Shown: positions 21,866 through 59,293 of the stretch, piece after piece
Layout: every line of letters begins with the position of its first letter
Numbering within the stretch: the first letter of the stretch is position 1
From: Acidobacteriota bacterium
GTDB taxonomy: Bacteria > Acidobacteriota > UBA6911
DNA length: 64,000 bases
Direction: 5' to 3'
NCBI GenBank assembly: GCA_963664705.1
Contig: OY761556.1
Span: 2,464,001-2,528,000, forward strand
Notes under the pieces: model-generated
Databases searched by the model: none
The model's input: only the letters and a program-made list of their open reading frames with translations
What the model was told of the DNA's origin: nothing
Translations under genes and position numbers: made by a program

Positions 21866-24253
21866 CTATTGGTAGGCGGGGTGGATGCTCCCATCCTGAA
21901 GTTGCCAATGCGGGAGCCATACCAATGCAACCATCCGGACTGCTATGTCCGCTTTTTTCGGTCGTTGCGAGGCGATCTCTATTTTCTGCGTTTGCGGATC
22001 GGTTGTGCCTTCAAGAACCTGAATCTCACTATTCAGTTCCGCCTCAAGATCCGCCTTCTGCTGCTGGAGGGCGTCAAGATTCTCGGAAGCAGCGGCGACA
22101 TCCGATTTTTCCTTGGCGGTGCGCATGCCGCTGCGTATGGTTCCGGAAGCTCTGCTGATATTTCCAGCGGAGAATGTCTTTCGCCCCATGAAAGCTCCCA
22201 GCAAGGTAGCGCCCAGAGACATGGCAGTCTGGACTCCGACCTGGCGCACATCGGACTTTTCTTTCTCAATGCGCTGTTCGGCTCGTCGGATTCGATCCTC
22301 CAGCATGGAGATTTTGGGTCCGTACTTGCGCCGGAGCGCCTCAACCGATTGATCCCGCTTCTCCCTCGCCACCTGGCTCACTCGTATGCGGAAATCTCCC
22401 TCGGATTCTCCCGGGTTTGAACTGAGTTTAAAATCCAGGCTGCGGAAACTCTGGATCTCCGAAGTCCGGTAAATGAAGCTGGCAAAATCCCGTTCCCACG
22501 CCTTGTAGTTTTGAGGCTTGCAGGCGGAGGATGGCAGTTGCACAAAGCTTCCCGTAACAGACGGCTCCTTTTCCATCTCCCTTTCATCAAAGTCGCCCGG
22601 TTTCGATTCATCCCACGATAGAGATATCTCTCCCGGGTCCGCAAGAAAGGAATGCCGTTTATTTTCCACGCCGCGATAGCTGACATCCGCCATACCGCAA
22701 ATCGCGGGTCTATATAGGGGCTGTGCCCCAGCCGGTTGTGAACCACGAAGAGGGAAAAAGTATTGGACTATCTGCGGCGGGAGACTTGGCCGATCCCCAA
22801 GGCCGGATGCGGCGATAACAGGCCTTGGCGGCGGAACTTCCGCCGGAGTCACGGTTTTCTTCGCCGAGCTCAGCATTTTGGTCTGAGCCAGAGTCAACGG
22901 TCCCCGCAGATAGGACAGACACCATCGTGTCTTAAATACTTCGGGAGCATTCTCGTGAATATTCTTCATTAGAAAAACACCTTTGCCCAGAGCGGACAAT
23001 GCGGTGCGCAGATCCGTTTGCGCATCGAGGAAGCCTGATCCCAGCCCTTGCGCCAGGCGATCGATGTCCTGCGCAGTCTGCATCTTCCCCAAAAACCAGG
23101 TCCCAGCGTTGGACAACGCTTTGTAATCAAGATCGACGGGGTTTTGAGTGGCAAGCAGCAGCCCGACTCCAAAGGCCCGTGCCTGTTTGAACAACAGAAG
23201 CAGCGGTTTCTTTGAAGGGGGGTTGGCGACTGGAGGCACATAGCCGGCAACCTCATCCATATAAACAAGCGCACGCAGGCTGGTCGTTCCGGGTTGAGCC
23301 CTCATCCACGCAACCACCTGGTTCAGCAGCAATGTGACGAAGAACATCCGTTCCGCATCGGAAAGATGCGCAATGCTGAAAATCGAAATCCTGGGCTTCC
23401 CTTCCGGCGCATATAAAAGTCTGGCAATGTCCAAGGGTTCCCCCTCAAGCCAGGAACCGAATCCAGGGGCAGCCAGGAGATTATTCAGCTTTAAAGCAAG
23501 CTCAAAGCGCTCCTTTGCCGGAAAGAATGAATCCAGATCGAAAGCTCCGACCCTCTCGAACGGAGGCGTTTGTATCGAGCGGATCAGGATGCCGAGATCG
23601 ACATTTTTCCCATCCCTCCAGTATTGCTGGATCACATTGGAAATGAGAATATGCTCGCGGCTGCTGATCGGATCCGCAGCAATTCCAACCAGACCGAGCA
23701 GTCCTGTCGTAGCCGCGGAAATCAAGTCGGCTACAGCCTCGCGATCTTCCAGCAGGGCAGCCGAAGGACAGGCAAAGCTGTTCATTACGGATATGGGCAT
23801 CCCGGCGGAGCTTCCCGGCGTATAGATGGTAAAATCGGCAGATTCTCGCAGCTTGAGAACTCGGCTTCCATCCTGCCCTGAATCCAAAAGCCCTTTCTTC
23901 CATAACTCCGCCTGAATTGCAGCATATTGCTCAGGGGTTTGATTGGCGCGCACGGCATCGTCGCTGTTGACCCAGGGCAAAAATTCGGCGGCACTGAGGT
24001 TGGGAAAATTCAGGAGCAGATTCCCCATATCTCCCTTGGGATCGATGACCAGCGCGGGAATTCTGTCTATCGCCGCTTCCTCCAGAATTCCAATGCCGAG
24101 ACCAGTCTTGCCACTGCCCGTCATCCCGACACAGACTCCATGGGTTACAAGATCTTTGGAGTCGTACATGACAAGATCATCCTCCACCCGACCGGAGGAT
24201 AGGTTGTATCGCTTTCCCAGGTAGAACTGACCCAGCTTTTCAAAGTCCTGCAT
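21866..24253 (-). CDS. HerA/FtsK-superfamily ATPase with C-terminal coiled coil
   Basis: Walker A GMTGSGKT, IDPKGD, Walker B VYMDE, KQARAFGVG and ATQNP. Confidence 0.85.
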   Translation of the reverse strand: MQDFEKLGQFYLGKRYNLSSGRVEDDLVMYDSKDLVTHGVCVGMTGSGKTGLGIGILEEAAIDRIPALVIDPKGDMGNLLLNFPNLSAAEFLPWVNSDDAVRANQTPEQYAAIQAELWKKGLLDSGQDGSRVLKLRESADFTIYTPGSSAGMPISVMNSFACPSAALLEDREAVADLISAATTGLLGLVGIAADPISSREHILISNVIQQYWRDGKNVDLGILIRSIQTPPFERVGAFDLDSFFPAKERFELALKLNNLLAAPGFGSWLEGEPLDIARLLYAPEGKPRISIFSIAHLSDAERMFFVTLLLNQVVAWMRAQPGTTSLRALVYMDEVAGYVPPVANPPSKKPLLLLFKQARAFGVGLLLATQNPVDLDYKALSNAGTWFLGKMQTAQDIDRLAQGLGSGFLDAQTDLRTALSALGKGVFLMKNIHENAPEVFKTRWCLSYLRGPLTLAQTKMLSSAKKTVTPAEVPPPRPVIAASGLGDRPSLPPQIVQYFFPLRGSQPAGAQPLYRPAICGMADVSYRGVENKRHSFLADPGEISLSWDESKPGDFDEREMEKEPSVTGSFVQLPSSACKPQNYKAWERDFASFIYRTSEIQSFRSLDFKLSSNPGESEGDFRIRVSQVAREKRDQSVEALRRKYGPKISMLEDRIRRAEQRIEKEKSDVRQVGVQTAMSLGATLLGAFMGRKTFSAGNISRASGTIRSGMRTAKEKSDVAAASENLDALQQQKADLEAELNSEIQVLEGTTDPQTQKIEIASQRPKKADIAVRMVALVWLPHWQLQDGSIHPAYQ

Positions 24254-26437: not shown

Positions 26438-26953
26438 ATGCGAGTGAAGAAAAGGGTCTTGGATTCAGAACGAAGGAGATGGCCCAGGCTTAAGCCCTCG
26501 GCTGTACCGTTTCTGAAGTCGGTAACTCTAAGCCAGGGTGCCGAAGTGCAGGCCATTGACATCTCTCGAGGCGGGATGCTGATCGAAACCGAGGTACGGC
26601 TTCGCCCTCAGATGAAGATTTTCCTGCGGCTTGTAACCGTTGATGGGATTATCAAACTTGAGGGATCCGTGGTCCGCTCATCCATCACATCTCTCACCGG
26701 CGCGCCGAAGTATCAGTCCGCGATATCCTTCGAGCATCCTTTTCATATGTTGGATGATATTTCCGAAGAGCCCGCGGCGATGCCGGTATCCGAACCGTTG
26801 CCTGAAGCCGAACTACCTCAGTTGCCCATCGAGCATTCATCGTTTCAGCCAATCTGGGGCCAGTTCGATGAAGATTCTTCAGTGATGACTTTCATAACTC
26901 CGGAACCGCAGGTAACCGATATACGGGACCGACTTAAAACCAATGACTGGTAA
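26438..26953 (+). CDS. PilZ-domain protein with acidic/Pro-rich C-terminal tail
   Basis: RRWPR (RxxxR) and DISRGG (DxSxxG) c-di-GMP-binding motifs. Start placed at ATG 26438. Confidence 0.82.
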   Translation: MRVKKRVLDSERRRWPRLKPSAVPFLKSVTLSQGAEVQAIDISRGGMLIETEVRLRPQMKIFLRLVTVDGIIKLEGSVVRSSITSLTGAPKYQSAISFEHPFHMLDDISEEPAAMPVSEPLPEAELPQLPIEHSSFQPIWGQFDEDSSVMTFITPEPQVTDIRDRLKTNDW

Positions 26954-26983
26954 CTCCTGGCCGCGCTACAGGCGTCCTTTATT

Positions 26984-29900
26984 ATGAATATTGTCTTTAT
27001 CAGCAATGATGCCCGTGATGCAGACTTCTTCAAACACGAATTGGAGAAGTCCGGGGCTCCCATTCATGTTGAACTCTCACCCAGCGTCTTGGATGCAATG
27101 GTACGCATTGGGAATGGGGGCAACTATGATGTCGTCGTTCTGGATACATCCCTCTCGACGACGGATGCGGTTAGCCTGGTCTCCTTTATCCGGCAGGAAA
27201 AGAAGCAGCTATCCATCATTGCTCTGACCGCCAGTGATAGCCAAACCGTGCCGGCTGAACTGCAAAATGCGGGGATCGATCAGGTCATTACCAAGCGACC
27301 CGGGTATACGGTTCAATTCCCTGAAATCCTGCAACATTTGCACCAGCCTCAGCAAGGCGAGAGCGCTTCCCGCCGCAGACAGGTGCAACTGCTGTATGCA
27401 GGAAAATTTGAAATTGCCCAGCGATACCTGTCCAATGTCACCCAACTAAAACTGGAACCCGCTCCTATCGCGCCCGATGGAACCTGGCAGATTTCCGAAA
27501 ATTCCGCGACTCCCACGGCAGACGCCTTGGTCCTGGATTTAGGGCTGACGGCCGCACAGGCACTCAAGGCTGTCAAAGATTCCGTTCAGCGGCTGCAGGA
27601 CGTACCTGTCATCCTGTTGACTATTCCCGGCGATGATGACACCGCATTGCATGCCATTAGAGCCGGAGCCGCCGATTGCATTGAAAAGTCGGGAAATTTC
27701 TTTCATCGTCTCCTGCTGGTGCTTCAACGCGAAATCGGCCGCCGGGAGTTGGCCCGGGAGCGAGCAACCCTTCGTGCCCGCGAGGAACGCCTGCGATTGA
27801 TCGTCGAAACGCTGCCGACCGGCGTCACCGTGATTGCTCCCGATGGCTCCATACTCGCGATGAACAATGTCGGGCTCCAAACGGTCAGCGCCCTCAATCT
27901 CGATCAAATCATTGGCAAGAGTCTTGCGGACCTTACTCCCGCAGCAGTGCATCAGGAGATCCTTTCCTTTGTAGCCGCGGTTTGTAGCGGCAAATCAGGA
28001 TCGTTCAAAACGGACCTGCACAGTCTTGATGGTTCGACGCGCCCGGTCGAATTGCGCGCAGTTCCAATGAAAAGAGACGGGAGCGGATCCACTGCAGCAC
28101 TTGTCGTCCTGCATATGGGCGGCGACGCTGCGGCACAACAGCTCGCTCTTCAGCAGACCGCCAAACTGGAAACGGCTGCAAAGGAGCACACAGCCAGAAT
28201 TCGCGAACTGGAAGACGACCTGCAGCGGCGGCAGTCCGAATGGGAATCGGATTTGAAGGCCGCGGATGCGCGGCGCATTGTGGTCGAAGCCGAAAAGGAA
28301 ACACTGCGGTTATCCGTCGAACAAGCTGCCGGCCGCTACACTCAGCTTCTTGCCGAACAGCAGATTGAGCGCAACAACTGGGAAGAACTGCGCCAGGAAC
28401 TCCAGGAACAGTACTCCAAAATTGAGGAAGTCGCGCAGTCGCTTCGATCCGAACAGTCCAGTCTTCAGGAAACACATCGCGTTGGACTCGAAGAATGGAC
28501 ACGGCAGAGAAACGAATTTGATGAAAAGCAGAAGGCGGCGGAACAACAGGCTTCGGATCTTTCGCTTCAACTCGAGCGCGAGCGCTCAGAATGGGCTCAC
28601 CAGCGACAGGAACTGGAACAGCAATGCACCGACAATGAAGGCAGAAGATCGCAGCTGGAATCTTCGCTCCGAAGCGTTGAGTCTAACCTGGCTCAGATTT
28701 TGGAGCAGAACAGACAGGAATTATCTGGAAGGGATGCTGTATTCCAGGAACTGGAACACAAATGCCATGCCGCGGAGGAACGGTGCCAAGAGCTGCAGGC
28801 TGCGGCCCAAAGTCACCAGTCCAGGGTTGCACAACTAACCGATGCCCACTCCGCCGAAATAGGATTGCGCAACTCCGCCTATTCCGATCTCGAGCGCAGG
28901 CTCCGGGAGGCAGAGGAACTCGTTGAAGCAAAGGATTCCGCCTGTATAGCTGCGGAATCACAGCTCGCGCAACTGACGGAAAGTCACGCCCGGGAAATTT
29001 CCGCCCTTGAGGACAAATACCGGTCGGCCGAAGACCGGCTCGCTTCCCAGGAGTCGACCCGGATTGAAATGGCATCCAAATTTGCACAGCTGGATGACGA
29101 GCACCACCGCAACCTCGAGGCAAAGGAATCGGAGCATCGTGAACTTCTGTCAAAACTCCAGATTTCGGAACAGCAGAACTCTGCGCTGGAATCGGCCCTG
29201 CGCAATGCCGACACAGGCGTCGCACATCTGACCGAGAAGCACAGTGCTGAAATATCGGAACTCACGTCCGCAAGGCAACAGCTTGAACAAAAGCTTCAGA
29301 ACGCGGAAGCGCAGAAGGTTCTGCTCGAATCAGCTTTGCGGCGCATTGAATCGAACCTGACGGAATTGGCTCAAATCCACACGCTTGAATCGGCGCAGCA
29401 GGCTCAGGCACAACAGGAGCTCGAGTCGCGATGCGCTGCTATGCAGACCGCATTGCGGGAAGCCGAATCCGGATTTGCGCTGCAAAAGGATGTTTATGAA
29501 AAACAGCTTGCGAGCCGCGAAATTGAGCTGAAATCCTTTGAGCAACAATGCGGCGCTCTCCAGAATGAGACCACCGCCTTAAAAACGGCTCTGCACGATG
29601 CAGAATCCCGTCTTGGACAGGCGACACAAGCACAGAAATACGAAAGCGACCGTCGCGATGCATCCCATAGAGATCTGGTACAGCTCTGCCAGGATCTCAA
29701 GGCTCAAGTAGCCGCGCTTCAGACAGCACTTGGCGATGCTCAAATGGCTCTGACGAGGCAGGCGGAGTCCCACGCAACCGAGATCTCACGCCAGATGGCA
29801 ATAGCCCAGGAACTGGAAAGCAAAGTCGAGGTTGCCGGATCGCGGACTCTTGATCTCCAAAACGAGCTCAACCAAAAACAATCCGAGTACTCGGAACGCG

Positions 29901-32647
29901 TGACCGAACACCGCGCCGAACTAAGCCGACGGGAAACGGTATATCTGGAACTCGAGCAGCGATATCAGGACATGCAAGCGCAAGCGGCGGCATTTCAGAC
30001 TGCTCTGAATGATTCGCAAATGGCTCTGTCACGCCAAGCCGAAACGCACGATACCGAAATTTCCCACCTTGAAGCAGCTCGAAAAGAACTGCAGGAAAAA
30101 CTTCAGACTGAAGAGCCGCAGATTCGTGAACTCCGGCAGGAGCTGGCCAATGCGCAATCTGCCATGGAACGGATCGTTGCAGAACATAGCAGCGAATTGC
30201 AGCGCAGGGATGCCGCACACCTGGAATTAGAGAAACTCTTCCTGGATGCCCAGGCTCAAATAATCGCGCTTCATACAGGCATGGGCGATGCTCAAATGGC
30301 GCTGTCACGCCAGGCCGAAATGCACGATGCCGAAATTTCCCACCTTGAAGCAGCTCGAAAAGAACTGGAGCAAAAACTTCAGACTGAAGAGCCGCAGATT
30401 CGTGAACTCCGGCAGGAGCTGGCCAATGCGCAATCTGCCATGGAACGGATCGTTGCCGAGCATGGCAATGAACTGCAGCGCAGGGATGCCACACACCTGG
30501 AATTAGAGAGACTCTTCCTGGATGCCCAGGCTCAAATGGCCGCGCTTCAAACTGCAATGGGCGATGCTCAAATGGCGCTGTCACGCCAGGCCGAAGCGCA
30601 CGATGCCGAAATTTCCCGCCTTGAAGCAGCTCGAAAAGAACTGGAGCAAAAACTTCAGACTGAAGAGCCGCAGATTCGTGAACTCCGGCAGGAGCTGGCC
30701 GATGCGCAATCTGCCATGGAACAGATCGTTGCAGAGCATAGCAGCGAATTGCAGCGCAGGGACGCTGCACACCTGGAATTAGAGAGACTCTTCCTGGATG
30801 CCAAAGCTCAAATGGCCGCGATTCAAACCGCAATGGGCGATGCTCAAATGGCGCTGTCACGCCAGGCCGAAGCGCACGATGCCGAAATTTCCCGCCTTGA
30901 AGCAGCTCGAAAAGAACTGGAGCAAAAACTTCAGACTGAAGAGCCGCAGATTCGTGAACTCCGGCAGGAGCTGGCCGATGCGCAATCTGCCATGGAACAG
31001 ATCGTTGCAGAGCATAGCAGCGAATTGCAGCGCAGGGACGCTGCACACCTGGAATTAGAGAGACTCTTCCTGGATGCCAAAGCTCAAATGGCCGCGCTTC
31101 AAACAGGCCTGGGCGATGCTCAAATGGCGCTGTCACGCCAGGCTGAGGCCTATTCCGAGGAATTCGCCAGGCGCGATCACGAACAAAAAGATTCCGAACA
31201 GAAGAGGGAGTCTGCGGTATCCCAACTGCTTTCACTTCAAACCGATCTGGCCCAACAGGCACAGGCTCATATGGCAGAACTCTCCCGGCGAGATCTTGCC
31301 TACCAGCAGCTGGAACAGCGCTTCAGCAGCCTGCAGACTTCTCTTGATAAAACAGAGGCGGAGTTGTCCTCGCAGATTGAAAAACACATCACCGAAAGTG
31401 ATCAGTGGAAAAACGCGCTGCAGGAATTGGAACAAAAGGTAAATGCCGGCAATCAGCATCACGCGGAAGCCCTTCAGGCCGAAATCCGTGAATCTGATAC
31501 GCGCATCGCCCAACTGGCAAAGGAAAACCAGTCCACAGCAATGCAGCTGGATCGCATTCGGCAGGAACTGGGACAGGTCCGGACCGAATTCGACGATCTG
31601 CAATCCAGGTATCACCGTCTGTCTGTTCTCTCTTCTTCGGGTATTTTGATTACAAGCATTGAAGGAGATGTATTGCAATGCAATGATGCCGCGGCCAGGA
31701 TGTTCGGTTTCCCGTCCTCCAAAGAGATTCTCCCGCAAGCCGGGAGGCCCCCCCTCAGAATATATTCTTTCGAAGGAGCTCTCGCAGCCCGGTTCCAGCA
31801 GGATGGCAGACTCGAAAATATCGAATGGGCTTCCTTGAATCGGGCAGGCGTTCTTTGCTATTTCAGGGAAAATGCCACGCTGATAGAGGCTGCTTCGGCG
31901 GATAAGGAACCGGTTGTTGAAAGGGTCCTGACCGACATCACCGCGGTGCAGAAACTGAAGGAGGAAATCAGGCGCGTCCGCAGATTGGATACGACCGGCG
32001 ATCTCGCGGTTGCCGCCGTTCAGAGCTTACAGGATTTGTGCGGATCTCTTGCACACTGCAGCGAGCTTTTGAGACAGGCGCCTGATAATTCTGATATTGT
32101 CAGAAAAGTTGCGGACGACATTTCCAGCGATGCCAACCGCGGCATCAAACATGCCCGTCAATTCCTGCAATTGTCCAAGAAGCAGGAACGCAGCCCGGCA
32201 CCCGTCAACCTGAACAAAATACTGACGGAAAATGCAGTCTTGATGCGCAGCCTGGTGGGAGAAGATATCGAGCTGCAAACCATCCTGCCGCGAAGAACTG
32301 CACTCGTATCGGCCGATCGGCAGGAAATTATTCAGCTGATCTCCAACATGATTGCCAGCTCGCGGGAAGCGCTTCCTCTGGGAGGAAGCATCAGCATCGA
32401 AATCACGTTATTGGACATCGATGCCGCGAACAAAATTTATCCATCATCCCTTCAGGCAGGAATCTACACTTGCATGAAAATAAGCGCCGATGGCTGCGCC
32501 GTTCAGCCTGAAAGACGCACCGGGTCCATTCGAGCCATCCTGGAACGAATGGGAGGCTGGCTGGAAAGCACGCACACGCCGCACTCGGGCAACATACACA
32601 CCATCTATCTGCCCAGGATTGAAGTCTGCGCCGAAACTGGAGAATAG
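26984..32647 (+). CDS. Giant signalling protein: REC-REC-PAS, ~1160-aa coiled coil, PAS, degenerate histidine kinase core
   Basis: YDVVVLD...ALT...ITK and ALVLD...LLT...IEK receiver motifs; two PAS-like segments; E/Q/L/A-rich heptads; C-terminal LVGEDIEL, ADRQEIIQLISNM, ALPLGG and IYLP. Confidence 0.85.
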   Translation: MNIVFISNDARDADFFKHELEKSGAPIHVELSPSVLDAMVRIGNGGNYDVVVLDTSLSTTDAVSLVSFIRQEKKQLSIIALTASDSQTVPAELQNAGIDQVITKRPGYTVQFPEILQHLHQPQQGESASRRRQVQLLYAGKFEIAQRYLSNVTQLKLEPAPIAPDGTWQISENSATPTADALVLDLGLTAAQALKAVKDSVQRLQDVPVILLTIPGDDDTALHAIRAGAADCIEKSGNFFHRLLLVLQREIGRRELARERATLRAREERLRLIVETLPTGVTVIAPDGSILAMNNVGLQTVSALNLDQIIGKSLADLTPAAVHQEILSFVAAVCSGKSGSFKTDLHSLDGSTRPVELRAVPMKRDGSGSTAALVVLHMGGDAAAQQLALQQTAKLETAAKEHTARIRELEDDLQRRQSEWESDLKAADARRIVVEAEKETLRLSVEQAAGRYTQLLAEQQIERNNWEELRQELQEQYSKIEEVAQSLRSEQSSLQETHRVGLEEWTRQRNEFDEKQKAAEQQASDLSLQLERERSEWAHQRQELEQQCTDNEGRRSQLESSLRSVESNLAQILEQNRQELSGRDAVFQELEHKCHAAEERCQELQAAAQSHQSRVAQLTDAHSAEIGLRNSAYSDLERRLREAEELVEAKDSACIAAESQLAQLTESHAREISALEDKYRSAEDRLASQESTRIEMASKFAQLDDEHHRNLEAKESEHRELLSKLQISEQQNSALESALRNADTGVAHLTEKHSAEISELTSARQQLEQKLQNAEAQKVLLESALRRIESNLTELAQIHTLESAQQAQAQQELESRCAAMQTALREAESGFALQKDVYEKQLASREIELKSFEQQCGALQNETTALKTALHDAESRLGQATQAQKYESDRRDASHRDLVQLCQDLKAQVAALQTALGDAQMALTRQAESHATEISRQMAIAQELESKVEVAGSRTLDLQNELNQKQSEYSERVTEHRAELSRRETVYLELEQRYQDMQAQAAAFQTALNDSQMALSRQAETHDTEISHLEAARKELQEKLQTEEPQIRELRQELANAQSAMERIVAEHSSELQRRDAAHLELEKLFLDAQAQIIALHTGMGDAQMALSRQAEMHDAEISHLEAARKELEQKLQTEEPQIRELRQELANAQSAMERIVAEHGNELQRRDATHLELERLFLDAQAQMAALQTAMGDAQMALSRQAEAHDAEISRLEAARKELEQKLQTEEPQIRELRQELADAQSAMEQIVAEHSSELQRRDAAHLELERLFLDAKAQMAAIQTAMGDAQMALSRQAEAHDAEISRLEAARKELEQKLQTEEPQIRELRQELADAQSAMEQIVAEHSSELQRRDAAHLELERLFLDAKAQMAALQTGLGDAQMALSRQAEAYSEEFARRDHEQKDSEQKRESAVSQLLSLQTDLAQQAQAHMAELSRRDLAYQQLEQRFSSLQTSLDKTEAELSSQIEKHITESDQWKNALQELEQKVNAGNQHHAEALQAEIRESDTRIAQLAKENQSTAMQLDRIRQELGQVRTEFDDLQSRYHRLSVLSSSGILITSIEGDVLQCNDAAARMFGFPSSKEILPQAGRPPLRIYSFEGALAARFQQDGRLENIEWASLNRAGVLCYFRENATLIEAASADKEPVVERVLTDITAVQKLKEEIRRVRRLDTTGDLAVAAVQSLQDLCGSLAHCSELLRQAPDNSDIVRKVADDISSDANRGIKHARQFLQLSKKQERSPAPVNLNKILTENAVLMRSLVGEDIELQTILPRRTALVSADRQEIIQLISNMIASSREALPLGGSISIEITLLDIDAANKIYPSSLQAGIYTCMKISADGCAVQPERRTGSIRAILERMGGWLESTHTPHSGNIHTIYLPRIEVCAETGE
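29690..31150 (+). repeat. In-frame 276-bp (92-aa) tandem repeat, about 5 units
   Basis: The GDAQMAL-encoding segment recurs near 29732, 30008, 30284, 30560, 30836 and 31112. The last four units are nearly identical in DNA. Confidence 0.95.
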
Positions 32648-35543: not shown

Positions 35544-36074
35544 ATGACCAGGCGGGCTTGCGCGGCAGCATTTGTGCTATTGATTGCGGGGACATTTGCT
35601 TTTCGTTCCGTATCCGGCGGGGAAAAGGCCACCATTTCCGAGCGTCTCCAGAGGCTGGAAGACCGTGAAGAGATACGGGAACTGCTGATGAATTATGGAA
35701 AGTTCCTGGACCAGAGGGATTTCGCCTCCTTCTCAGGGCTTTTTGCCGAGAAGGATGGAGAGTGGATTGGCGGGCTGGGAAAGGCCAAGAGTCGCGATTC
35801 CATCCGCAAACTAATGGAAAGTACCATTGGAAGCGGCAGCGCCGGCGGACCCAATTGTCACGTGTTTACCAATGAAATGATCCAGGTGGATGGAAGCCGG
35901 GCAAAAGCCCTCACCAAGTGGATCTTTATGATTCAAAACAGTTCCAAGCAGCCTCAGCCTTATTATGTCGGCCACTACGACGATATGTTCATCAAAGAGA
36001 ATGGCCGATGGAAATTTCTCAAACGGACGGTCTACAGCGATATTCCACCCGATGAACCCTCATCACGCAAATGA
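35544..36074 (+). CDS. Exported SnoaL-like/NTF2-family protein
   Basis: GAGGAGG SD, signal peptide, LEDREEIRELL, GHYDD and ENGRWKF. Confidence 0.82.
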   Translation: MTRRACAAAFVLLIAGTFAFRSVSGGEKATISERLQRLEDREEIRELLMNYGKFLDQRDFASFSGLFAEKDGEWIGGLGKAKSRDSIRKLMESTIGSGSAGGPNCHVFTNEMIQVDGSRAKALTKWIFMIQNSSKQPQPYYVGHYDDMFIKENGRWKFLKRTVYSDIPPDEPSSRK

Positions 36075-37444
36075 ACCGACCCAGTTTCAGATGGAATTGC
36101 CGTTGAGAGGTCGCCCGAATTAGTCTTTACGGAGAGCGCCTGTGGACCAAATTGAATCCCGATTTTGTGCAGAAAATTGTTCGGAGCGACCCCGCCGGCA
36201 AATACCCAGACAAAGTCATTCTTTATTTCTTTTCGTGTGCCGGAGCAATCCAGCACGACGCTCCCCTCTCTGAATTCAACCGGATTTGAACTAAACCAAA
36301 CCTGTATCCGACCCGAGCGCATGTATTGTCCGATGCGCTTTGCATTTCGATCCTTCAACCGGCTGAATACTTCCCCGCGATAGGAAAGCGTTATCCGGTT
36401 TCCTTTTTGATTAGCTAATCCCGTTGCAGCCTCAATGGCGCTATCCCCTCCTCCGACCACCAGAATTTGCCGGTTCGTATAAGCCTCTGCCTCGACAAGT
36501 CGATACATAACCTTCGGCAGTTCTTCTCCCTTTATTCCCAGTTTGCGTGGCGTACCGCTTCGGCCAATCGCCAGGACAATGGCGCGAGCTCTGTATTGTC
36601 CTTTCGGAGTAGTGATTTCAAATATCCCATCTTCAGCCTTTTTGATATCCTCCACGCCTTCGTTGGTTCGCGCCATAAAGTCTCCACGTTTGCCGACCTT
36701 GGCCCAGAAATCGAGAATCTCCTCCTTTGAAAGAGCCATCTTTTTGAATTTTCCGTACAGCGGAAAATGCACGGGACTGGTCATGACCAGCTTTTGCCGC
36801 GGATACTTGGAAACGGTCCCGCCAATTTCACTCTGCTCCAGCGTCAGATATCGCAGGCCGTTTTCGATGGCGCGCAGAGATGCGCTGATGCCCGCAGGGC
36901 CTGCGCCGACAATACACACATCAAACGCGCTCGCGTCCGTTCCCGGCGCACTGCTGCGCATTCGTCCGGCAATAGTATCGATGCAATCACGCCCCTCGTT
37001 CACCGCATTCTTGATCAGCGCCAGGCCTCCCAGCTCTCCCGCAATAAAGAGTCCGGAAATGCTGGTTTCGTGTTCCGACGAAAGATACGGCAGATCTGCG
37101 TTCATGCTGGGCGCCGCGTTTATCATTTTTATGGCACCAACAGGGCAGGCATCGGCGCACAATGCATGACCAATGCACTTGTGTCCGTTGATGATTGTGG
37201 CCTTGCCTTTCAAGACAGCAAGAACATCCCCTTCCGGACAGGCTCTGACACAGCTGCCGCAACCGATGCAGGTGGAGACATCAATGCTCGGGTGCTGCGC
37301 CCGGGGCCCCTCGGCAAACAGCTTTCCCTTCTCCGTGGATTGAAGCGTACGAACCCTGTTGGATCGCAGGCGCCATAGATATATGAAAAGAGGCACGGCA
37401 AAGATGATAATCGTGAGGATATAGCCCGGCAGCAAATCTGTCAT
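36032..37444 (-). CDS. Membrane-anchored 2x[4Fe-4S] ferredoxin fused to a TrxB/FNR-like FAD-NAD(P)H oxidoreductase
   Basis: N-terminal TM helix; CIGCGSCVRACP and CIGHALCADACP; GLFIAGE; GAGPAG; GGGDSA plus YR. Confidence 0.88.
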   Translation of the reverse strand: MTDLLPGYILTIIIFAVPLFIYLWRLRSNRVRTLQSTEKGKLFAEGPRAQHPSIDVSTCIGCGSCVRACPEGDVLAVLKGKATIINGHKCIGHALCADACPVGAIKMINAAPSMNADLPYLSSEHETSISGLFIAGELGGLALIKNAVNEGRDCIDTIAGRMRSSAPGTDASAFDVCIVGAGPAGISASLRAIENGLRYLTLEQSEIGGTVSKYPRQKLVMTSPVHFPLYGKFKKMALSKEEILDFWAKVGKRGDFMARTNEGVEDIKKAEDGIFEITTPKGQYRARAIVLAIGRSGTPRKLGIKGEELPKVMYRLVEAEAYTNRQILVVGGGDSAIEAATGLANQKGNRITLSYRGEVFSRLKDRNAKRIGQYMRSGRIQVWFSSNPVEFREGSVVLDCSGTRKEIKNDFVWVFAGGVAPNNFLHKIGIQFGPQALSVKTNSGDLSTAIPSETGSVHLRDEGSSGGISL

Positions 37445-37497
37445 TGTGAGCCCGATTCACAAGTCCTGTATACAATCGTAAAGCATCCGGCAATTGT

Positions 37498-38448
37498 TTA
37501 GAAGTACCCGAACCATGTCACGACGCTCACATGAATGATCACGAAAAATGCGAAGGAGATGCTGAAGGGTCTATGAATCACATGCCACCCGTAAAACACG
37601 CGCTGGGTTTGAGACAGAAATAGAATTCGCTTCGATAATGCAGCCTGCCTGGAAGCGAGACGAACGGCCTTCTCAAGCTCTGCGTCCGAGCTGTGGATTA
37701 CTCCTCCCAGCAAAGCGGACCGGCCGGAAGCCTTGATTCCCTGCCGCCGCAGCCTCCAAACCATGAACGGTCGAGCAATATCCAGCAGAACCATGCGCAT
37801 CAGCGCACGGTACAGCGGGATGGACTGAATCTCGCCAATTGCGGGCAATCGCAGCAGTTCTTCTATTCGGAAGAAAGGCAGTGCTTTCTGGGACCGTAAC
37901 TGTTCAACCAGGTCATTCTTGAGATCCTCCATCTCCTTCAATGACAATTCCGCGGCGCCGATGTTCCTGGGAATCTGCGCATAAAAATAGCGACCGATCA
38001 TACCGCTGATCACCAGCGCCATCATTGTCCAATAAGCCATACCGGCAAACCCGTGCAGTTTGAAGGCAGAATGAAATGTAATCAGAACGGGGGCGGTTAA
38101 CCCGAAAAGGACATGGTAGTCGAACCAATTGCGTGTCTTGCCAAAACGCCCCAGAAACGCCCAGTGTTTCCTCAGAGGATAGAGATAAACCATGGCAAGG
38201 AACGTGAAGCCGCACATTCCCAGCCGAATCCCGATATTCCCACTCGGCTTCAAATAGACATGTTTGGGTGAAAAGGGTCGCGCAGTCAGATCAAGGAAAT
38301 AGTAATCCCACCCATACGCAATCAGGCTGATCCCAATACAGACAACAGCAGCCCCAATTGCGATGATCCCCAGTCTCCTGCCGATTCCTTGTCCGACGCT
38401 CAGCGCCGGCGCAGCTCTATCTGAGTCCATATCGATCGATTCGTTCAC
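37498..38448 (-). CDS. Inner-membrane protein, probable diheme cytochrome b (ferric-reductase-like)
   Basis: About 5 hydrophobic helices; HVLFGLTAPVLITFH and HRPFSISFAFFVIIH (both H-x13-H); GTGA overlap with the upstream gene. Confidence 0.75.
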   Translation of the reverse strand: MNESIDMDSDRAAPALSVGQGIGRRLGIIAIGAAVVCIGISLIAYGWDYYFLDLTARPFSPKHVYLKPSGNIGIRLGMCGFTFLAMVYLYPLRKHWAFLGRFGKTRNWFDYHVLFGLTAPVLITFHSAFKLHGFAGMAYWTMMALVISGMIGRYFYAQIPRNIGAAELSLKEMEDLKNDLVEQLRSQKALPFFRIEELLRLPAIGEIQSIPLYRALMRMVLLDIARPFMVWRLRRQGIKASGRSALLGGVIHSSDAELEKAVRLASRQAALSKRILFLSQTQRVFYGWHVIHRPFSISFAFFVIIHVSVVTWFGYF

Positions 38449-39239
38449 CGGGATGTCCTCTCGATAGCCTGTACATTGAAGCGCCTGTATTGAGAATAGT
38501 GATGGATGTTGCGCCAATGCTGGAATCCGGTCTCGATCTCGATCAGGCTTCGCGACGGAAGCCATCGCGCCAAATTCGCGGAGAGTTTCTGGAGCTTATA
38601 ATTCACCTCCACTTTGAACTTCATTACATTAATTTCCCTCATTGGAGCGATCAGGTTCGCACTCATTCCTGTGACAATACCGGTGTCCGGTTCAATTACA
38701 GCCGTACCAATCAGCTCAAGCGGATATATCCGCCCCTGAACGGTGATCGCGGCCGTGGAAGGCGTTCCGGAAATATGTTCAAATCGGATATGCAGGGCTC
38801 CATCCCGGGTTGTCTCCGGATCCATCTGGAAGCGATAATTGGATTGATGCACCGGATGAAAGATCATCAGCATCGTCGGAAATCCATTTGTGCTAAGAAG
38901 TGCAGGCGCCTCCGCCCTATCCGCTCTTTTGCCCAGCGGAAGGCGAACTTCTTCTACCGTCAGATCCTCATCTTCCTTTCGCGTAATGGCGAGGTAGTCA
39001 AAAACCGAATCCTGCTGGTATTCGATCTTCCCGTTCTTTGCGATCTTTTCCTGGCTGATTGATTCAGTGCAGCTAAACGAAGAGACCTCCGCCCAGAAGG
39101 AACTGACGACCGCTCCGGCTTTTCGGAGCACTTCCTCGATGGAGGGATCCTTTACCTCCGATCCTGCGACACCGGGTACTGCCGCAGCCCCCAGTGAAAT
39201 CGCAATCAACAGGCACGTCCGAATCAGGTTATTCCTCAT
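38445..39239 (-). CDS. Exported hypothetical protein
   Basis: Sec-type signal peptide, beta-rich pattern, 4-bp overlaps with both neighbours. Confidence 0.75.
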   Translation of the reverse strand: MRNNLIRTCLLIAISLGAAAVPGVAGSEVKDPSIEEVLRKAGAVVSSFWAEVSSFSCTESISQEKIAKNGKIEYQQDSVFDYLAITRKEDEDLTVEEVRLPLGKRADRAEAPALLSTNGFPTMLMIFHPVHQSNYRFQMDPETTRDGALHIRFEHISGTPSTAAITVQGRIYPLELIGTAVIEPDTGIVTGMSANLIAPMREINVMKFKVEVNYKLQKLSANLARWLPSRSLIEIETGFQHWRNIHHYSQYRRFNVQAIERTSR

Positions 39240-40942
39240 TGCGATCTCTTGTGGTTATCAAAGCGATATCCCAGGTTTACAAAGTACTGGTTGTATCGCT
39301 GTACCTGGCCGCGGTAGGCAGTGATACCGATTCCCATGATGTAGTGGGCTCCCACATACCAGTCGAATGTACCGTTGATAAACCGGGCACGGCTCTGATC
39401 GGTAAACTGCGACGAGAGTGCCTGCTGACCCAGTTGCACTTCGAATCGGAACCCCTCGCCAACCTGTCGATCCGCAGTGAATGTCTGGTAGGTGCCGCGG
39501 CCAAATGAACTGTCGAAGCGGGAATACCTGTAATCAGCCCGGACGCCCGAATGCAATATGTCTCCCAGGGACGCTCCGGCCAGATAATTCCAGGAGGCGC
39601 GATTATCCCCGGTTCGGCTGCTCCGTCCCGTATTCCCATACACGCTGAATCTGTAAGGCAAAGATAGACGAATACCCCCATTCAGCCCCTGGAACAGGAA
39701 CTTATCCAGCAATCCCGTACCAATCAACCGGATATCAAACGTGGGAACATTCCGGAAATAATTTTCATTGATATCGAAAGCAATGATGGGATGCGGCTGG
39801 ATTCGCACCGTGACATAGCTGCGGCTAAGTTTGACTTCCCGATTGTTTCCGGTTTGAGATCGCGTCAGCAGATCGACTTCCTGGTTGCTGTAGACTGAAA
39901 AATGCGATTTGTAAAATATTCCATTTTCGAAAAACGCAAACTGCCGGTCCGGCTGCCAATGCACGCGTGAGATTGCGATTCCGGAGGTACTGCTAAAGCG
40001 CACGGCATCAAAGCTGCCTCGTTCCATATTAAAAAAGGCGCCCCCAATGGTGCGGTTCCGATCGTAATTCCATGAGGAGGGATCCGGAGTCGTTCCTCCG
40101 AATGCACCGAGGGTCTGTCGACCCACGCGCCGCCCCACATAAAATCCGTCAATCGTGCTGAGGCTTGCGGCCCATGGCACATAGAGCCGGCCGAATCCTG
40201 CCATCCAGTTGCTCTTCGGACTATCGTAGTTAATGCTGAATGTGTACGTGCGATTAATAAGATCGGAGAGCGTTTCCTGCTGATAATCCTTCCTCATCTG
40301 ATAGCGCCCACGGTGATATCCGTGCACACTCCAGTAGGATCCACCCAGACGCGTGGCATCCAGCCGAAGCATGAACCCGAACTGCGAGGACTGCACGCCG
40401 GTGCCCGGGATCTGCAGGAAACTGGTATCGGCTCCAATACGCGCCCGAACCCGGTTTACCTCGGGCAATGGCGGTTTGGGAATACTCTCCCGCATTTCCT
40501 GTAATGGCGGCGCGCCTTCAGTGAAAGCCGCGATCTGCGGATACTTTCGAACCTCGCGCATCATCGATTCCTGCCGAAGCATCTGCCGGTCTCCCGGCCG
40601 AAAATAGGCGGCGTCTCCCGGCACGATTTCGGATTTGGATGAAACAATTCTACCCGCCGCGGAGGTCGCGGCCACTGACTCGATCTCGATTTCACCAACC
40701 GTCATCGCTTCGGCAAACGCCTCGTCAGATTCTTTGCGGCGGATCGAGAGAATCTGTCCCTCCGCCAGGCCGGCTCCGCTTCCCGCCTCAAGGTAAACAG
40801 CGTTATCGTGAACAAATTTTACGCGAAATCCGCCGGATGAATCGGGCCCGGCCATGACTATCCGGTACGAATTGAAAGCGAGGACAAGCAGCCACAACAT
40901 CGTTGCTGTTCCTGATTGCCCGAAATGCCTGCAGCGAATCAT
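39236..40942 (-). CDS. Probable outer-membrane beta-barrel (porin) with N-terminal soluble domain
   Basis: AGGAGG SD, signal-like N-terminus, many G/Y/F/R-rich amphipathic strands after ~aa 160, final strand YFVNLGYRF. Confidence 0.75.
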   Translation of the reverse strand: MIRCRHFGQSGTATMLWLLVLAFNSYRIVMAGPDSSGGFRVKFVHDNAVYLEAGSGAGLAEGQILSIRRKESDEAFAEAMTVGEIEIESVAATSAAGRIVSSKSEIVPGDAAYFRPGDRQMLRQESMMREVRKYPQIAAFTEGAPPLQEMRESIPKPPLPEVNRVRARIGADTSFLQIPGTGVQSSQFGFMLRLDATRLGGSYWSVHGYHRGRYQMRKDYQQETLSDLINRTYTFSINYDSPKSNWMAGFGRLYVPWAASLSTIDGFYVGRRVGRQTLGAFGGTTPDPSSWNYDRNRTIGGAFFNMERGSFDAVRFSSTSGIAISRVHWQPDRQFAFFENGIFYKSHFSVYSNQEVDLLTRSQTGNNREVKLSRSYVTVRIQPHPIIAFDINENYFRNVPTFDIRLIGTGLLDKFLFQGLNGGIRLSLPYRFSVYGNTGRSSRTGDNRASWNYLAGASLGDILHSGVRADYRYSRFDSSFGRGTYQTFTADRQVGEGFRFEVQLGQQALSSQFTDQSRARFINGTFDWYVGAHYIMGIGITAYRGQVQRYNQYFVNLGYRFDNHKRSQ

Positions 40943-40951: not shown

Positions 40952-43126
40952 CTAGTCCGTCCGGCCGGTCGGATGGCATGAATAGCAATTTGCACTGTTG
41001 TAAACGTAATTCGAGACTCCCTGATGCTGAGAATCCGTGGTTGCTTTGTCATGGGTGTGACAGGTAATGCAGGAAAAAACCGAGTAATTGTTCGAGTTCG
41101 TATGGCAGTCTCCGCAACTGGTCCAGCGTCCTGCATGCGAGCCGCTGTAGATCGGGAACTGGGCGTGGTTGAAGGTCGCCCCGCTCCATGAGGAGGTCGA
41201 ATGGCAGCTGTCGCATGTTTTGGGGAAAAGAGCAGCCACATGGTTGGGGTCTGTCGTACTGGTATATTCCTTTGAATGGCAGGAATAGCAATCGGTCGGC
41301 GTGCCCGCATATATCCCCGAAATGTGGCATAGAGCGCACTGCACACTAGTGTGAGCGCCGGTCAAAGGGAAGTTTGTCTTGCTGTGGTTAAAGATCGACG
41401 GGCTCCAGGCGCTGGTGGAATGACAGATCGTGCAATCCTGGGGGAAGCCCGCGCTGACATGGTTCGGATTGGAGGCACCGTTGAAATTGGCAAGATGGCA
41501 TGAAACGCAGGCGGTCGGCAGGTTTGCATACTGGCCGCTGGAATGACACGCGGGGCATTGCAGCGGCGCATGCGCGCCGGTGAGAGGGAATTTCGTCTTG
41601 CTGTGATCGAAGAGCGCCGGAGTCCATGCTGTCGTGCTGTGGCATACGGAACAATCCTGAGGAAATCCGGCGGCAGTATGGTTTGGATTCGTCGTGCCAT
41701 TGAAATCGGTCAGATGACAGGAAACGCAAGTTGTCGGCAGCGTCGCATACTGGCCGCTTGCATGGCAGGCACTGCATTTCTGGCCGGCATGCGCCCCGGT
41801 CAGAGGGAATTTTGAGGTGTTGTGGTCGAATATGGACGGCGTCCAGGCTATCGTGCTGTGGCATGTCGAACATACCTGGGAAAAACCTGCAGCAACATGA
41901 TCAGGGTTTTTGGAACCGGTGAAATCGCTGAGATGGCAGGAGGCACAGGCCGTGGATAGCCCTGTATACTGGCCATTTTTGTGGCAATCCACGCACTGCC
42001 TCGATGCATGAGCGCCCGTAAGCGGGAACTGCGTCTTGCTGTGATCGAATGAGGCCGGATTCCATGCCGTCGTCGCATGACAGATTGTGCAATCCTGGGG
42101 GAAGCCCGATGTGACATGGTTCGGATTGGTGGTCCCGTTAAAATCAGCCAGATGACAGCTGATGCAGGCCGTGGGAAGGCCCGCATATTGTCCGTTCTTG
42201 TGACAATCGATACACTGGATGCCCGAGTGAGCGCCCGTAAGCGGAAACTTGGTTGCATTGTGGTTAAAGGTTGTCCCCTGCCACGAATTTGTTGTGTGGC
42301 AAACGGAGCAGTCTTTCGGAAAATTGGCCTGGACGTGATCTGGATTCGTTGCTGCATTGTAGTCCTTCAAATGACATCCGATACAGTCGGCCGGTGTTCC
42401 AGAGAATTTCCCCCCGATGTGACATTGAGTGCATTGCAGGCTGGCATGAGCGCCCAAAAGAGCGAATCCTGTGACCTTGGCATGATCCAAAAGGCTGCGT
42501 TGCCAGTTGTCTGCCTGGTGACAGGACTCGCAATTTGTTGAAAATCCCGCGGCCTGGTGATCAATCACCCTGGCACTCAGGTAATCGGCCTGGTGACACG
42601 ATACGCACTGCGTGCTCAGCCCCTTAAACAACCCCACCGCCGCACTCTTATGGCAGTCCTGGCAGGATGTCGCCGCATGCGCCCCAAGCAGCGGAAACCG
42701 GTTTTCGTGGCCGCCGGGATTCCTCCGCACATCACCCCAGCCGCGAATCGTATGACATTGTTCGCAATTGCTTCCCATCTGCCGCCTATGGATATCCGCA
42801 TGGCAATCCGCACAGTTTTTCCCAACATTGGAGAAGACAAGCTTGAGGTGGCACTGCCTGCAGTCCAACGCGGCATGCATCCCCTGCAGCGGGTATCCCG
42901 TGCTGGCATGGCTGAAATCCGGGAAAGGTCGAATCGGCTTCCAGCTCGTGGTGGTATGGCAATTGGTGCACGAGATTTTAATTGCGCCATGCGGGCTGTA
43001 TGTCCGTTCCGACGACTGTTGAACCGAAAGGGCAAATCCGGCAACGACCGCAGCACAAACCAACACACATATTGCGGTTGCCGAAATTCGCAGCGAAAGC
43101 CTCCTGGTAATATGCAATAATTTCAT
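40952..43126 (-). CDS. 28-heme c-type cytochrome built from 73-aa triheme repeats
   Basis: 28 CxxCH motifs counted; repeating FxH...FPLTGAH...NPNH. ATG 43126 overlaps the upstream stop and is followed by a signal peptide. Confidence 0.95.
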   Translation of the reverse strand: MKLLHITRRLSLRISATAICVLVCAAVVAGFALSVQQSSERTYSPHGAIKISCTNCHTTTSWKPIRPFPDFSHASTGYPLQGMHAALDCRQCHLKLVFSNVGKNCADCHADIHRRQMGSNCEQCHTIRGWGDVRRNPGGHENRFPLLGAHAATSCQDCHKSAAVGLFKGLSTQCVSCHQADYLSARVIDHQAAGFSTNCESCHQADNWQRSLLDHAKVTGFALLGAHASLQCTQCHIGGKFSGTPADCIGCHLKDYNAATNPDHVQANFPKDCSVCHTTNSWQGTTFNHNATKFPLTGAHSGIQCIDCHKNGQYAGLPTACISCHLADFNGTTNPNHVTSGFPQDCTICHATTAWNPASFDHSKTQFPLTGAHASRQCVDCHKNGQYTGLSTACASCHLSDFTGSKNPDHVAAGFSQVCSTCHSTIAWTPSIFDHNTSKFPLTGAHAGQKCSACHASGQYATLPTTCVSCHLTDFNGTTNPNHTAAGFPQDCSVCHSTTAWTPALFDHSKTKFPLTGAHAPLQCPACHSSGQYANLPTACVSCHLANFNGASNPNHVSAGFPQDCTICHSTSAWSPSIFNHSKTNFPLTGAHTSVQCALCHISGIYAGTPTDCYSCHSKEYTSTTDPNHVAALFPKTCDSCHSTSSWSGATFNHAQFPIYSGSHAGRWTSCGDCHTNSNNYSVFSCITCHTHDKATTDSQHQGVSNYVYNSANCYSCHPTGRTD

Positions 43127-45318
43127 GGCCGTTTTCCTGATGTATCCAATCCATGGCATGCCGTACACTCGCGTTTCGTCCCCTTGTAAACAACCACCTT
43201 CTTGCCCTTCACATCCATGGAATCGGAATGGCACAACACACAGGCTACACGCTTGTGTGCGCCGGTAAGTGCAAACGTCGACTGCTTCTCATGATCAAAG
43301 GAGGAAGGCACCCACTTCTGAAACGGATGGCAGCGGCCGCAATCCAAAACTGTACCGGTCACCGCGAATTGCCCCGCATGAGCATCCTCATGACACCCGA
43401 TGCATTCCTGCGGAGTTCCCGAATATCGAACAATGCCCCCGGCTGATTTGGAGTGGCATCGTTCGCACTTGACGGACTGATGTGCCACCGATAGCGGAAA
43501 CCGGGTTGTGGCATGATCAAACGTAACTTCAGCCCAGGCATTGATGGAGTGGCAACTGCTGCACCCGCCCACCCTGCCGTCCGGCATTGGAGTTCGCATG
43601 CGCGATGTAAACTGTCCCTTGTGCGGATCCTGATGGCAGCCGGTGCATTGCTGCGGCGCATCTTTATATACAATGTCCGCAATAGCAGCCTTTCCCAGCG
43701 GTGGCTTGTGGCACTTGATGCATTCCGCCCGCTTATGCGCCCCCTCAAGCCGGAATTCCGTGGCCGCATGGTTAAAAGAATCCAGTTCATGCCACGAATT
43801 GACCGTGTGACACGCCCGACAGCTTTTCGCCGTCCCGTCAGGAAACCGATCCTGCATCTGCAAGGTGAATTGTCCGCGATGGAGATCCGAATGACACGCG
43901 GGACAGGACCTGTCATCAAAACGATATTGGACCGGCTGTGCTCCGCCTTTATGGCACTGGGAACACTGCAGCCTTTCATGCCCCCCGGATAGAGGAAAAC
44001 GTGTGGATGCATGCAGCGGCGCAGAAAAGAGGGATGGTTTGAACGTACTCTGGTTATGGCATTTCTCGCAATGGTTGTTATACCGTTCATCGGAGAATTG
44101 TCCCAGGTGAATATCCCGGTGGCAGGCAATACAGGAAATATCCCGCATCCGATAGACGACCGCCTTTGCGCCATTGGCCTTGTGACAATCGGCGCAGCGT
44201 ACGATCCGATGATGCTCCTCAAGCGGAAACCGGGTCGCGGAATGTCGTGCGACATCGAACGTGGTCGGAGTAAAGCCGTTTACCGTATGGCAATCACCGC
44301 AATCGCGCGGCAAGCGCTCCGCATCGAACTGACCTTGGTGAGGATCCCTGGAGTGACAATCCCTGCATTTCTCAAATACGAGCGGCCTGGAGAATTTTGC
44401 CTGCAAGTGACATCCGGTACATTCAACCCGCACATGTCTGCCCTCAAGCGGAAAACGCGTTCGGGAATGATTGAATCCATCATCACCATGGATGGATTTC
44501 CAGCTTGTCTTGGCCGAATGACATGTCCGGCACGCATCCTTAAAGGTTCCGCCGTGTGGATCCTTGTGGCATGGCGTGCAGTCTTCAAATTGCAGGTTCC
44601 TATAACGTCTGACGGCTCTCCCGGTCGCAGGCATCGAGTGACATTGGATGCAATCAACCTTTTCGTGAGAGCCCTCCAGGTTGAAACGCGCATTCCGATG
44701 ATTGAATCGAGCGGGCCTTTTCCAATCTTCAAAATCATGACACCGATCGCACCGATCCGTCAGCTCGCCCTGGTGCGGGTCCGCGTGGCAACCCGAACAC
44801 AATGTCGAAAGCCCCAGATAAGTCCGGTTCAAATCTCTTATCACAATGGAGGTTCTGGAGGCTCCGGGAATATTGTCCGCTTTGTGGCATCTGCGACATT
44901 CCACCCGAGAGTGCTTTGCCTCCAGACGATAGCCGGTGGAGGCATGATCAAATTGGCTCAAGGGCATGGTCCAGTGAATCAAGTTGAAAGCCCTTCCATT
45001 ATGCTCATTGTGGCACTGGGCGCAGACGCGTCCGCTTCGGTCCGCACCTACCAGCGATGGGTGCAATCCCCTGTTCCCCTGGATGCGATCCCGAATGTCC
45101 TTATGGCAGGAGATGCATTTGAATTCGGGAGGCCTCTTCCCGGCATCGTGACAATCGCCGCAGTGGCCCGATCCGCTCAACGACTGATGAGCATTGGATA
45201 GGTCGCCGGGCGAAATCTGAGGATAGGCCTGATGGATCAAAACCGCGATCAGCCAGCCAAAAACCAGGGCTCCCTGGACCAACGCTTGTCCGCTTCCAGC
45301 AATCCGGGAGAAATCCAT
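43123..45318 (-). CDS. 26-heme c-type cytochrome
   Basis: 26 CxxCH motifs counted; signal peptide then QISPGDLSNAH; repeats FxH...FPLEGxH...DPHxGQF. Confidence 0.95.
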   Translation of the reverse strand: MDFSRIAGSGQALVQGALVFGWLIAVLIHQAYPQISPGDLSNAHQSLSGSGHCGDCHDAGKRPPEFKCISCHKDIRDRIQGNRGLHPSLVGADRSGRVCAQCHNEHNGRAFNLIHWTMPLSQFDHASTGYRLEAKHSRVECRRCHKADNIPGASRTSIVIRDLNRTYLGLSTLCSGCHADPHQGELTDRCDRCHDFEDWKRPARFNHRNARFNLEGSHEKVDCIQCHSMPATGRAVRRYRNLQFEDCTPCHKDPHGGTFKDACRTCHSAKTSWKSIHGDDGFNHSRTRFPLEGRHVRVECTGCHLQAKFSRPLVFEKCRDCHSRDPHQGQFDAERLPRDCGDCHTVNGFTPTTFDVARHSATRFPLEEHHRIVRCADCHKANGAKAVVYRMRDISCIACHRDIHLGQFSDERYNNHCEKCHNQSTFKPSLFSAPLHASTRFPLSGGHERLQCSQCHKGGAQPVQYRFDDRSCPACHSDLHRGQFTLQMQDRFPDGTAKSCRACHTVNSWHELDSFNHAATEFRLEGAHKRAECIKCHKPPLGKAAIADIVYKDAPQQCTGCHQDPHKGQFTSRMRTPMPDGRVGGCSSCHSINAWAEVTFDHATTRFPLSVAHQSVKCERCHSKSAGGIVRYSGTPQECIGCHEDAHAGQFAVTGTVLDCGRCHPFQKWVPSSFDHEKQSTFALTGAHKRVACVLCHSDSMDVKGKKVVVYKGTKRECTACHGLDTSGKRP

Positions 45319-59030: not shown

Positions 59031-59202
59031 CCATTTAGAGAATCAGATAATGTAACGGAAAGAAGAAGCCGGAAGCAAGGAGCAAGAAGCAAGGAGACAC
59101 TTGGCAATGAAGCCCACTGGGGCGCCGCCATCCCGGCGACAACGGCTTTGATAGAGACCTTGCCGGCGAGATGGTGAATGCCATTTGCTTTTCTCGGCGC
59201 TT

Positions 59203-59293
59203 TTCTTTCGCCCCTTCAGGGCTCCTTGAGCTCTGAACATAACCCCGGGCTCGCAGGCTCGCCCGGGGCTACTATCTTTCGCGCCTTCGGCGC
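59203..59293 (+). repeat. Three-hairpin REP-like element, left copy (interrupted by the IS)
   Basis: GCCCC-TTC-AGGGC, CCCCGGGC...GCCCGGGG and GCGCC-TTC-GGCGC; inverted homologue at 61195-61294. Confidence 0.75.

Follow-up and report, generated by a model that had tools for sequence, protein, structure and literature searches.

PsmA of Streptomyces venezuelae is a cytoplasmic, PAS-containing relic of a hybrid kinase, a histidine pseudokinase proposed to act as a scaffold (PMC12963549). It lacks the H-box His, its catalytic (CA) domain is incompatible with ATP, and its receiver (REC) Asp is dispensable; a 696-aa disordered region lies between kinase and receiver, and the protein binds DivIVA and is confined to Streptomycetaceae (PMC12963549). 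DivL of Caulobacter crescentus is a PAS-DHp-CA pseudokinase without autokinase activity (PMC4211667; PDB 4q20). A unit of related design comes from an Acidobacteriota bacterium (UBA6911; assembly GCA_963664705.1), where positions 2,464,001-2,528,000 of contig OY761556.1, forward strand, a stretch of 64,000 nt called the window below, hold a single-domain PilZ gene followed by a giant gene for a pseudo-histidine kinase of 1887 aa. An earlier note on this DNA had placed the end of the PilZ gene 30 bp upstream of its neighbor, a gap confirmed by the coordinates of the open reading frames (ORFs).

Two further kinds of system bear on this unit. AglZ of Myxococcus xanthus joins an N-terminal pseudo-receiver to a long coiled coil. 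FrzS of the same species has this layout as well and acts as a polar beacon (PMC9811614, PMC1974792), and HapZ of Pseudomonas aeruginosa is a PilZ protein that binds the REC domain of the hybrid kinase SagS (10.1101/2020.02.11.943704).

By analogy, the Acidobacteriota unit may work most like PsmA and DivL, with a pseudo-receiver and rod laid out as in FrzS and an adaptor resembling HapZ. What it shares with PsmA, compared by description, is a dead cytoplasmic PAS kinase relic with a long spacer; the order differs, running PAS-kinase-disordered region-REC in PsmA and REC-REC-PAS-coiled coil-PAS-kinase here, with a dedicated PilZ gene besides. The retained PAS-DHp-CA pseudokinase is common to DivL and the unit, but in DivL a Tyr replaces the His, the ATP lid is retained and phosphorylated DivK is sensed (PMC4211667), and the passages on DivL describe no N-terminal receivers, giant rod or PilZ partner. 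The protein was rejected as a DivL orthologue: Tyr is found in none of 71 sequences and the lid is deleted. FrzS and AglZ are alike in pairing a pseudo-receiver with a long coiled coil, a likeness of description rather than sequence, and their descriptions mention neither a head derived from PAS or kinase domains nor a PilZ linked to them. The HapZ-SagS and MapZ-CheR1 (5xly/5y4r) pairs of P. aeruginosa resemble the paired PilZ in having a stand-alone PilZ with both cyclic di-GMP (c-di-GMP) motifs, although SagS is an active kinase, unlike the 1887-aa protein. CckA (5idj; PMC5026420) belongs to the same DHp-CA subfamily, the catalytic residues of which are gone here.

The preferred explanation, to which we give a probability of about 0.5, is that the giant protein is an ancient histidine pseudokinase serving as a cytoplasmic rod scaffold, with the c-di-GMP-binding PilZ protein from the upstream gene as its likely switch or positioning factor. 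The pair is an intact two-gene module, conserved in uncultured Acidobacteriota and apparently undescribed: no description of a PilZ-giant pseudokinase family was found in the open-access literature (main texts, exclusive of supplements), and the only database label of relatives is 'PAS domain S-box protein'. The domain order of the 1887-aa protein is REC-REC-PAS, about 1160 aa of coiled coil, and PAS-DHp-CA. A Pfam scan matched Response_reg twice, PAS and PilZ in the two-gene unit and gave no match to HisKA or HATPase_c in the 1887-aa protein; in NCBIfam, aa 1560-1843 match CckA (E=1e-17, far below the cut-off). The features are as follows.

26438..26953, +, single-domain PilZ gene, ATG at 26438 to stop at 26953, 171 aa
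26474-26488, +, RxxxR motif of PilZ, aa 13-17
26558-26575, +, DxSxxG motif of PilZ, aa 41-46
26879..26950, +, PilZ C-terminal tail (V/I-L-T-V...helix-N-D-W) after a variable acidic linker, candidate docking peptide
26984..32647, +, giant pseudo-histidine kinase gene, 1887-aa ORF, single copy in the genome
26984..27343, +, REC1, pseudo-receiver (S7, N8, D54, T82, K104)
27380..27739, +, REC2, atypical receiver (G140, K141, D185, T213, K235)
27773..28114, +, PAS1, Pfam PAS_4/PAS, aa 268-376
28115..31603, +, coiled-coil rod, about 1163 aa, period 3.54, 46-residue modules
30017..31143, +, recent tandem expansion within the rod, 276 bp (92 aa = 2 x 46) in 4.1 copies, 94% matches
31604..31945, +, PAS2, Pfam PAS_8 and AlphaFold model
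31946..32188, +, DHp-like helical hairpin, His replaced by Gln1680 (nt 32021-32023), following residue Ser1681
32189..32623, +, CA (GHKL)-like domain, N-box Asn replaced by Ser1792, G1 Asp by Ala1835, F and G2 boxes deleted
32483-32530, +, lid remnant in CA, site of the F/G2 deletion

The kinase end carries the argument. A CckA-like C-terminus without the His and with a collapsed lid had been proposed, and both traits are confirmed: Gln1680 occupies the His column of the H-box, which reads TGDLAVAAVQ(1680)SLQDL, and the ATP lid is reduced to SADGCAVQPERRTGSI, a loss of 20 residues relative to active kinases. Among solved structures, CckA (5idj) is the top match by sequence (E=2.6e-23). An AlphaFold model of aa 1541-1880 has a PAS domain, a helical hairpin and a GHKL sheet at a mean confidence (pLDDT) of 83, and the modeled kinase end matches the fold of histidine kinases, with a template-modeling (TM) score of 0.70, by target length, to the CA domain of CckA. 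Among 64 relatives (24 genome copies, exclusive of the shortened or split ones in G023 and G029, and 40 database proteins, ranked by similarity only), the H-box His is absent from 63, and all 64 have lost the same 20 residues of the ATP lid, with its F and G2 boxes; the exception, in genome G015, has His followed by Ser, with the lid likewise deleted. A wider, non-redundant set, 71 of 102 sequences at <90% identity (P0051, P0131, P0053, P0193, P0194 and the G141/G196 copies excluded), has His in one member, again followed by Ser, the G1 Asp, F box and G2 box in none, and the N-box Asn in 24, a count that is partly circular because 32 rows had been chosen for lacking His or lid. Active control kinases have His and the N, G1, F and G2 boxes in 49/49 each.

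Selection maintains the dead domains. Over DHp-CA, the ratio of nonsynonymous to synonymous substitution (dN/dS) is 0.11-0.68 by a simple counting method in the 33 of 190 pairs that are unsaturated. A quick tree places 35 pseudokinases on one side of a branch and 75 active kinases on the other (SH-aLRT 100), with long branches and composition bias affecting the rows from a more distant, second order. Searches, each scoring about 8000 top candidates, returned no active full-length homologue; one restricted to shorter lengths gave four N-terminal pieces, and a profile search at longer lengths gave 17 proteins, 15 of which cover most of the N-terminus without HisKA/HATPase_c annotation. The protein lacks what defines an active histidine kinase (His with Asp/Glu, and the N, G1, F and G2 boxes), and it has what defines a histidine pseudokinase, a retained DHp-CA fold with catalytic loss conserved under purifying selection. 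By sequence and fold it is a histidine pseudokinase whose DHp-CA fold is retained under selection. The prediction that the kinase is catalytically dead is supported across the family, as the earlier note had held; no search found close homologues with intact H and G boxes.

The second line of evidence concerns the partner. PilZ matches PF07238 above the Pfam cut-off, and RxxxR and (D/N)xSxxG on its barrel are kept in 31/31 of the related PilZ listed; it is likely to bind c-di-GMP, as predicted from these motifs. The modeled barrel (pLDDT >90) matches the PilZ domains of MrkH, YcgR and MapZ in fold. In the tail, N169 is invariant and W171 is present in >=90% of 28 sequences; the model renders the tail as a low-confidence free segment with a helix at 159-168, unpacked from the barrel, as would be expected of a docking peptide. 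The acidic linker and NDW tail have no match among solved structures. The direct c-di-GMP site of CckA is not kept (G318 is Gly in 1/71, and Y514 and K518 align with Arg and Glu in the 1887-aa protein), a loss that fits reliance on a separate adaptor.

Synteny of homologues with PilZ, proposed earlier as a check, holds directly upstream of the giant gene in all 25 family genomes with both ends assembled (G010, at a contig end, is outside the count). In the second order, PilZ lies upstream in 6 of the 7 genomes examined (G087, G547, G477, G271, G141, G196; G497 is outside the count, and the C-terminus in G271 is unassembled). The kinase end is missing from 11 family genomes, and in 8 of these the paired PilZ has no match either; a contig end cuts the pair in G006, and G012, 89% complete, has the kinase end and only a weak PilZ match. 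Two PilZ-pseudokinase pairs stand in tandem in each of G141 and G196. Synteny, co-loss and co-duplication together support coupling of the giant gene to PilZ, in which both c-di-GMP motifs are kept. Taken as a whole, the interpretation in the earlier note is supported in part. The tandem clusters (L117 in G196, L118 in G141) each hold three PilZ and two diverged pseudokinase genes, in the order PilZ, PilZ(NSW)-long form, PilZ-short REC-PAS-pseudokinase form. The source genome has 13 PilZ and 17 GGDEF matches. A second member of the PilZ subfamily, in the G000:C1:4130050 region (L124:5945-6550, -), ends in ELNNW and has no giant gene as neighbor; orphan PilZ paralogues of this kind occur in several relatives as well.

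In the mechanism envisioned, the giant protein would form a parallel dimer, as DHp domains do, in which a REC-REC-PAS head and a PAS-DHp-CA head are held up to ~170 nm apart. PilZ would be the c-di-GMP receptor and would use its NDW tail to dock on the giant protein, most likely at the PAS2-pseudokinase head, because this is the only part never lost while the PilZ tail persists. The rod may carry or tether partners at a cell site, in the manner of PsmA and FrzS at poles, with output by localization or partner binding. Surface or pilus behavior can be offered only as a guess at the process served.

Several points weigh against the scaffold explanation. Constraint is moderate in the high-GC clade (dN/dS 0.4-0.68). 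The second-order member in G527 has no upstream PilZ, and G002 and G008 carry a tail-less PilZ with no giant gene behind it. In 13 of 43 members REC2 combines the second residue of the acidic pair (DD2) with D, T and K, so that some members may be phosphorylated. PilT occurs in 60/61 genomes and is hence uninformative on pili.

An unlikely alternative is a reversed sensor of the DivL kind, in which the dead DHp-CA would bind a phosphorylated response regulator from elsewhere and signal through PAS2 and the rod, with PilZ acting in the same pathway and not binding directly. Derivation from CckA-type kinases and a DHp kept under selection are both in keeping with it, and DivL is described as working so (PMC4211667). 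No cognate or conserved response regulator was found among the flanking genes of the loci examined, however, and the lid deleted here is present in DivL, which binds TNP-ATP weakly. Such a sensor would also leave co-duplication with PilZ and the conserved NDW tail unexplained.

Quite unlikely is a response regulator controlled by phosphorylation, with REC2 phosphorylated in trans, the rod and dead head as output, and PilZ binding a receiver as HapZ binds SagS. A canonical receiver is described as having DD1, DD2, D, T/S and K all present (PMC12632262), a set complete in 0/43 at REC1 and 0/43 at REC2. REC1 keeps Asp in 32 of the 43, Thr/Ser in 5 and Lys in 34. REC2 has Thr/Ser in 28. The Asp (36/43) and Lys (39/43) of REC2 speak for the response regulator, as do the 13 members noted above and an active REC-REC-PAS-kinase relative in G070; against it, DD1 of REC2 is invariably Gly (43/43), this copy has Lys as DD2, and the PilZ tail is retained where REC2 (G020; L147) or REC1 (G023, G021, G022, G004, G015) has been deleted. 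The earlier note was right that both receivers here keep Asp, Thr and Lys (D54/T82/K104 and D185/T213/K235), but the metal-binding acidic pair is gone from both (S7-N8, G140-K141). Its description of the protein as phosphorylation-controlled is weakened: with atypical receivers, either of which can be deleted, such control is doubtful, and from these patterns it is unlikely to be the core function of the family. A subclade (L140, L144, L146, L149, L126) has the first strand and helix of REC1 fused to the rest of REC2, which leaves one hybrid receiver.

The rod invites a further alternative. Measured between the PAS domains, it is 1163 aa long (about 1160 had been noted, at ~170 nm) and would span ~173 nm if straight. 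Pro makes up 0.3% of it, and hydrophobic residues recur with a period of 3.54; the coiled coil is called from Pro content and this period, and SMC-like NCBIfam matches fall below cut-off. Across 37 of 38 proteins measured (the rod in G141 is unbounded), lengths run from 100 to 1277 aa and periods from 3.46 to 3.62; a 46- or 92-residue repeat dominates in 22/37, and other clades use 32, 39, 49 or 89. Free length with a kept helical register fits a spacer. A self-assembling cytoskeletal filament of the intermediate-filament type, its assembly gated by the end domains and by PilZ with c-di-GMP, is distinctly improbable. The very long, nearly Pro-free rod, its conserved period and the prevalence of the 46/92-residue module would suit such a filament; members with rods of 100-330 aa persist, module length differs by clade (32, 39, 46, 49, 89), and the rod has a net charge of -85 with no long charge period beyond the harmonics of its own repeat, which lends no support to filament assembly. 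The 'filament' of the earlier note has accordingly gained no positive evidence. Orthologues in G017, G033 and G029 (L022, L032, L033) are split into at least two ORFs within the rod; many neighbors in G029 are split too, likely by sequencing indels.

Short-read contigs (runs X1/X2) show zero differences from the window sequence, probably come from the source sample and hence are not independent; the repeat unitig in them has ~3.5-fold depth. Raised depth and contig agreement argue that the rod repeat is no assembly artifact. A decaying kinase gene or assembly artifact, with PilZ adjacent by chance, deserves almost no weight: some relatives are indeed frameshift-split (G017, G029, G033), but the deletion in 64/64, dN/dS <1 and an open frame of 1887 aa rule out decay of this copy, and short-read agreement and pairing in two orders speak against it as well.

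Close relatives sit in records titled Acidobacteriota. A search of 61 genomes found C-terminal orthologues in 21/29 of the same genus and 4/7 others of the same family (25/36 for the family), and in 0/24 other genomes of the class; the two best matches outside the family are intact kinases. A profile search of 301 phylum genomes, scoring only 7 candidates per genome, left a gap between scores of 373 and 244 bits, and the 23 aligned matches below it are intact kinases. More distant members among protein representatives led to the second order, in another class, where one query found 5/151 genomes, all of one family, and an N-terminal profile added G271, G141 and G196. The distribution is patchy and the counts are floors. 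The active REC-REC-PAS-histidine kinase of G070 (L115:3334-5649) shares the tandem receivers, which score 177 bits against the family profile. It has no rod, and its locus gave no PilZ match; this layout is plausibly ancestral, though the tree does not place this kinase as sister to the family. A flagellar link was rejected: 9 genomes have the unit and no flagellin, and 5 have flagellin and no unit. Of the motility scaffold resembling FrzS and AglZ that had been suggested, the pseudo-receiver and long coiled coil stand, and the occurrence of the unit does not follow that of flagellin.

The remaining flanking genes are housekeeping genes, shuffled and varying across relatives, and a promoter/terminator scan gave 0 promoters and 2 hairpins, within chance range. 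A HerA/DUF87-like P-loop protein of 795 aa (21866-24253, -) is divergent from ubiD; in G017 and G029 its counterpart has stayed beside both ubiD and the PilZ pair. Genes resembling argF (OTCase) and mutS2 (58101-63772) lie ~26 kb downstream of the giant gene, and Pfam-confirmed counterparts directly adjoin the pseudokinase in G011, G016 and G026; this proximity suggests that the chromosomal site is stable within the genus. A pair of neighboring genes for very large multiheme cytochromes (40952-45318, -; 28 and 26 CxxCH motifs) is followed, in 36032-40942, by two proteins that match no Pfam family (568 and 264 aa), a membrane protein weakly resembling ferric reductases and a 4Fe-4S/FAD oxidoreductase, and the cluster looks like an electron-transfer conduit.

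A bolder form of the scaffold explanation can be envisioned, which we consider doubtful at present: the kinase relic would be a c-di-GMP-gated molecular ruler or cytoskeletal strut, its dead head docked by the PilZ NDW tail at high c-di-GMP, and its rod, in 46-residue (~7 nm) steps from 15 to 190 nm, would set the distance between heads or build a cell-spanning structure. If true, Acidobacteriota would have built a structural element under second-messenger control from two-component parts. DivL and PsmA are among the few bacterial histidine pseudokinases studied, and both organize cell polarity. In the present family the loss of catalysis is clean and shared, a c-di-GMP adaptor is dedicated to the pseudokinase, and variants that lack REC1 or REC2 or have rods of 100-1277 aa occur naturally; these traits make it a compact two-protein system for studying how dead kinases are reused and how scaffolds may be controlled by c-di-GMP, and it points to unexplored cell-organization machinery in Acidobacteriota.

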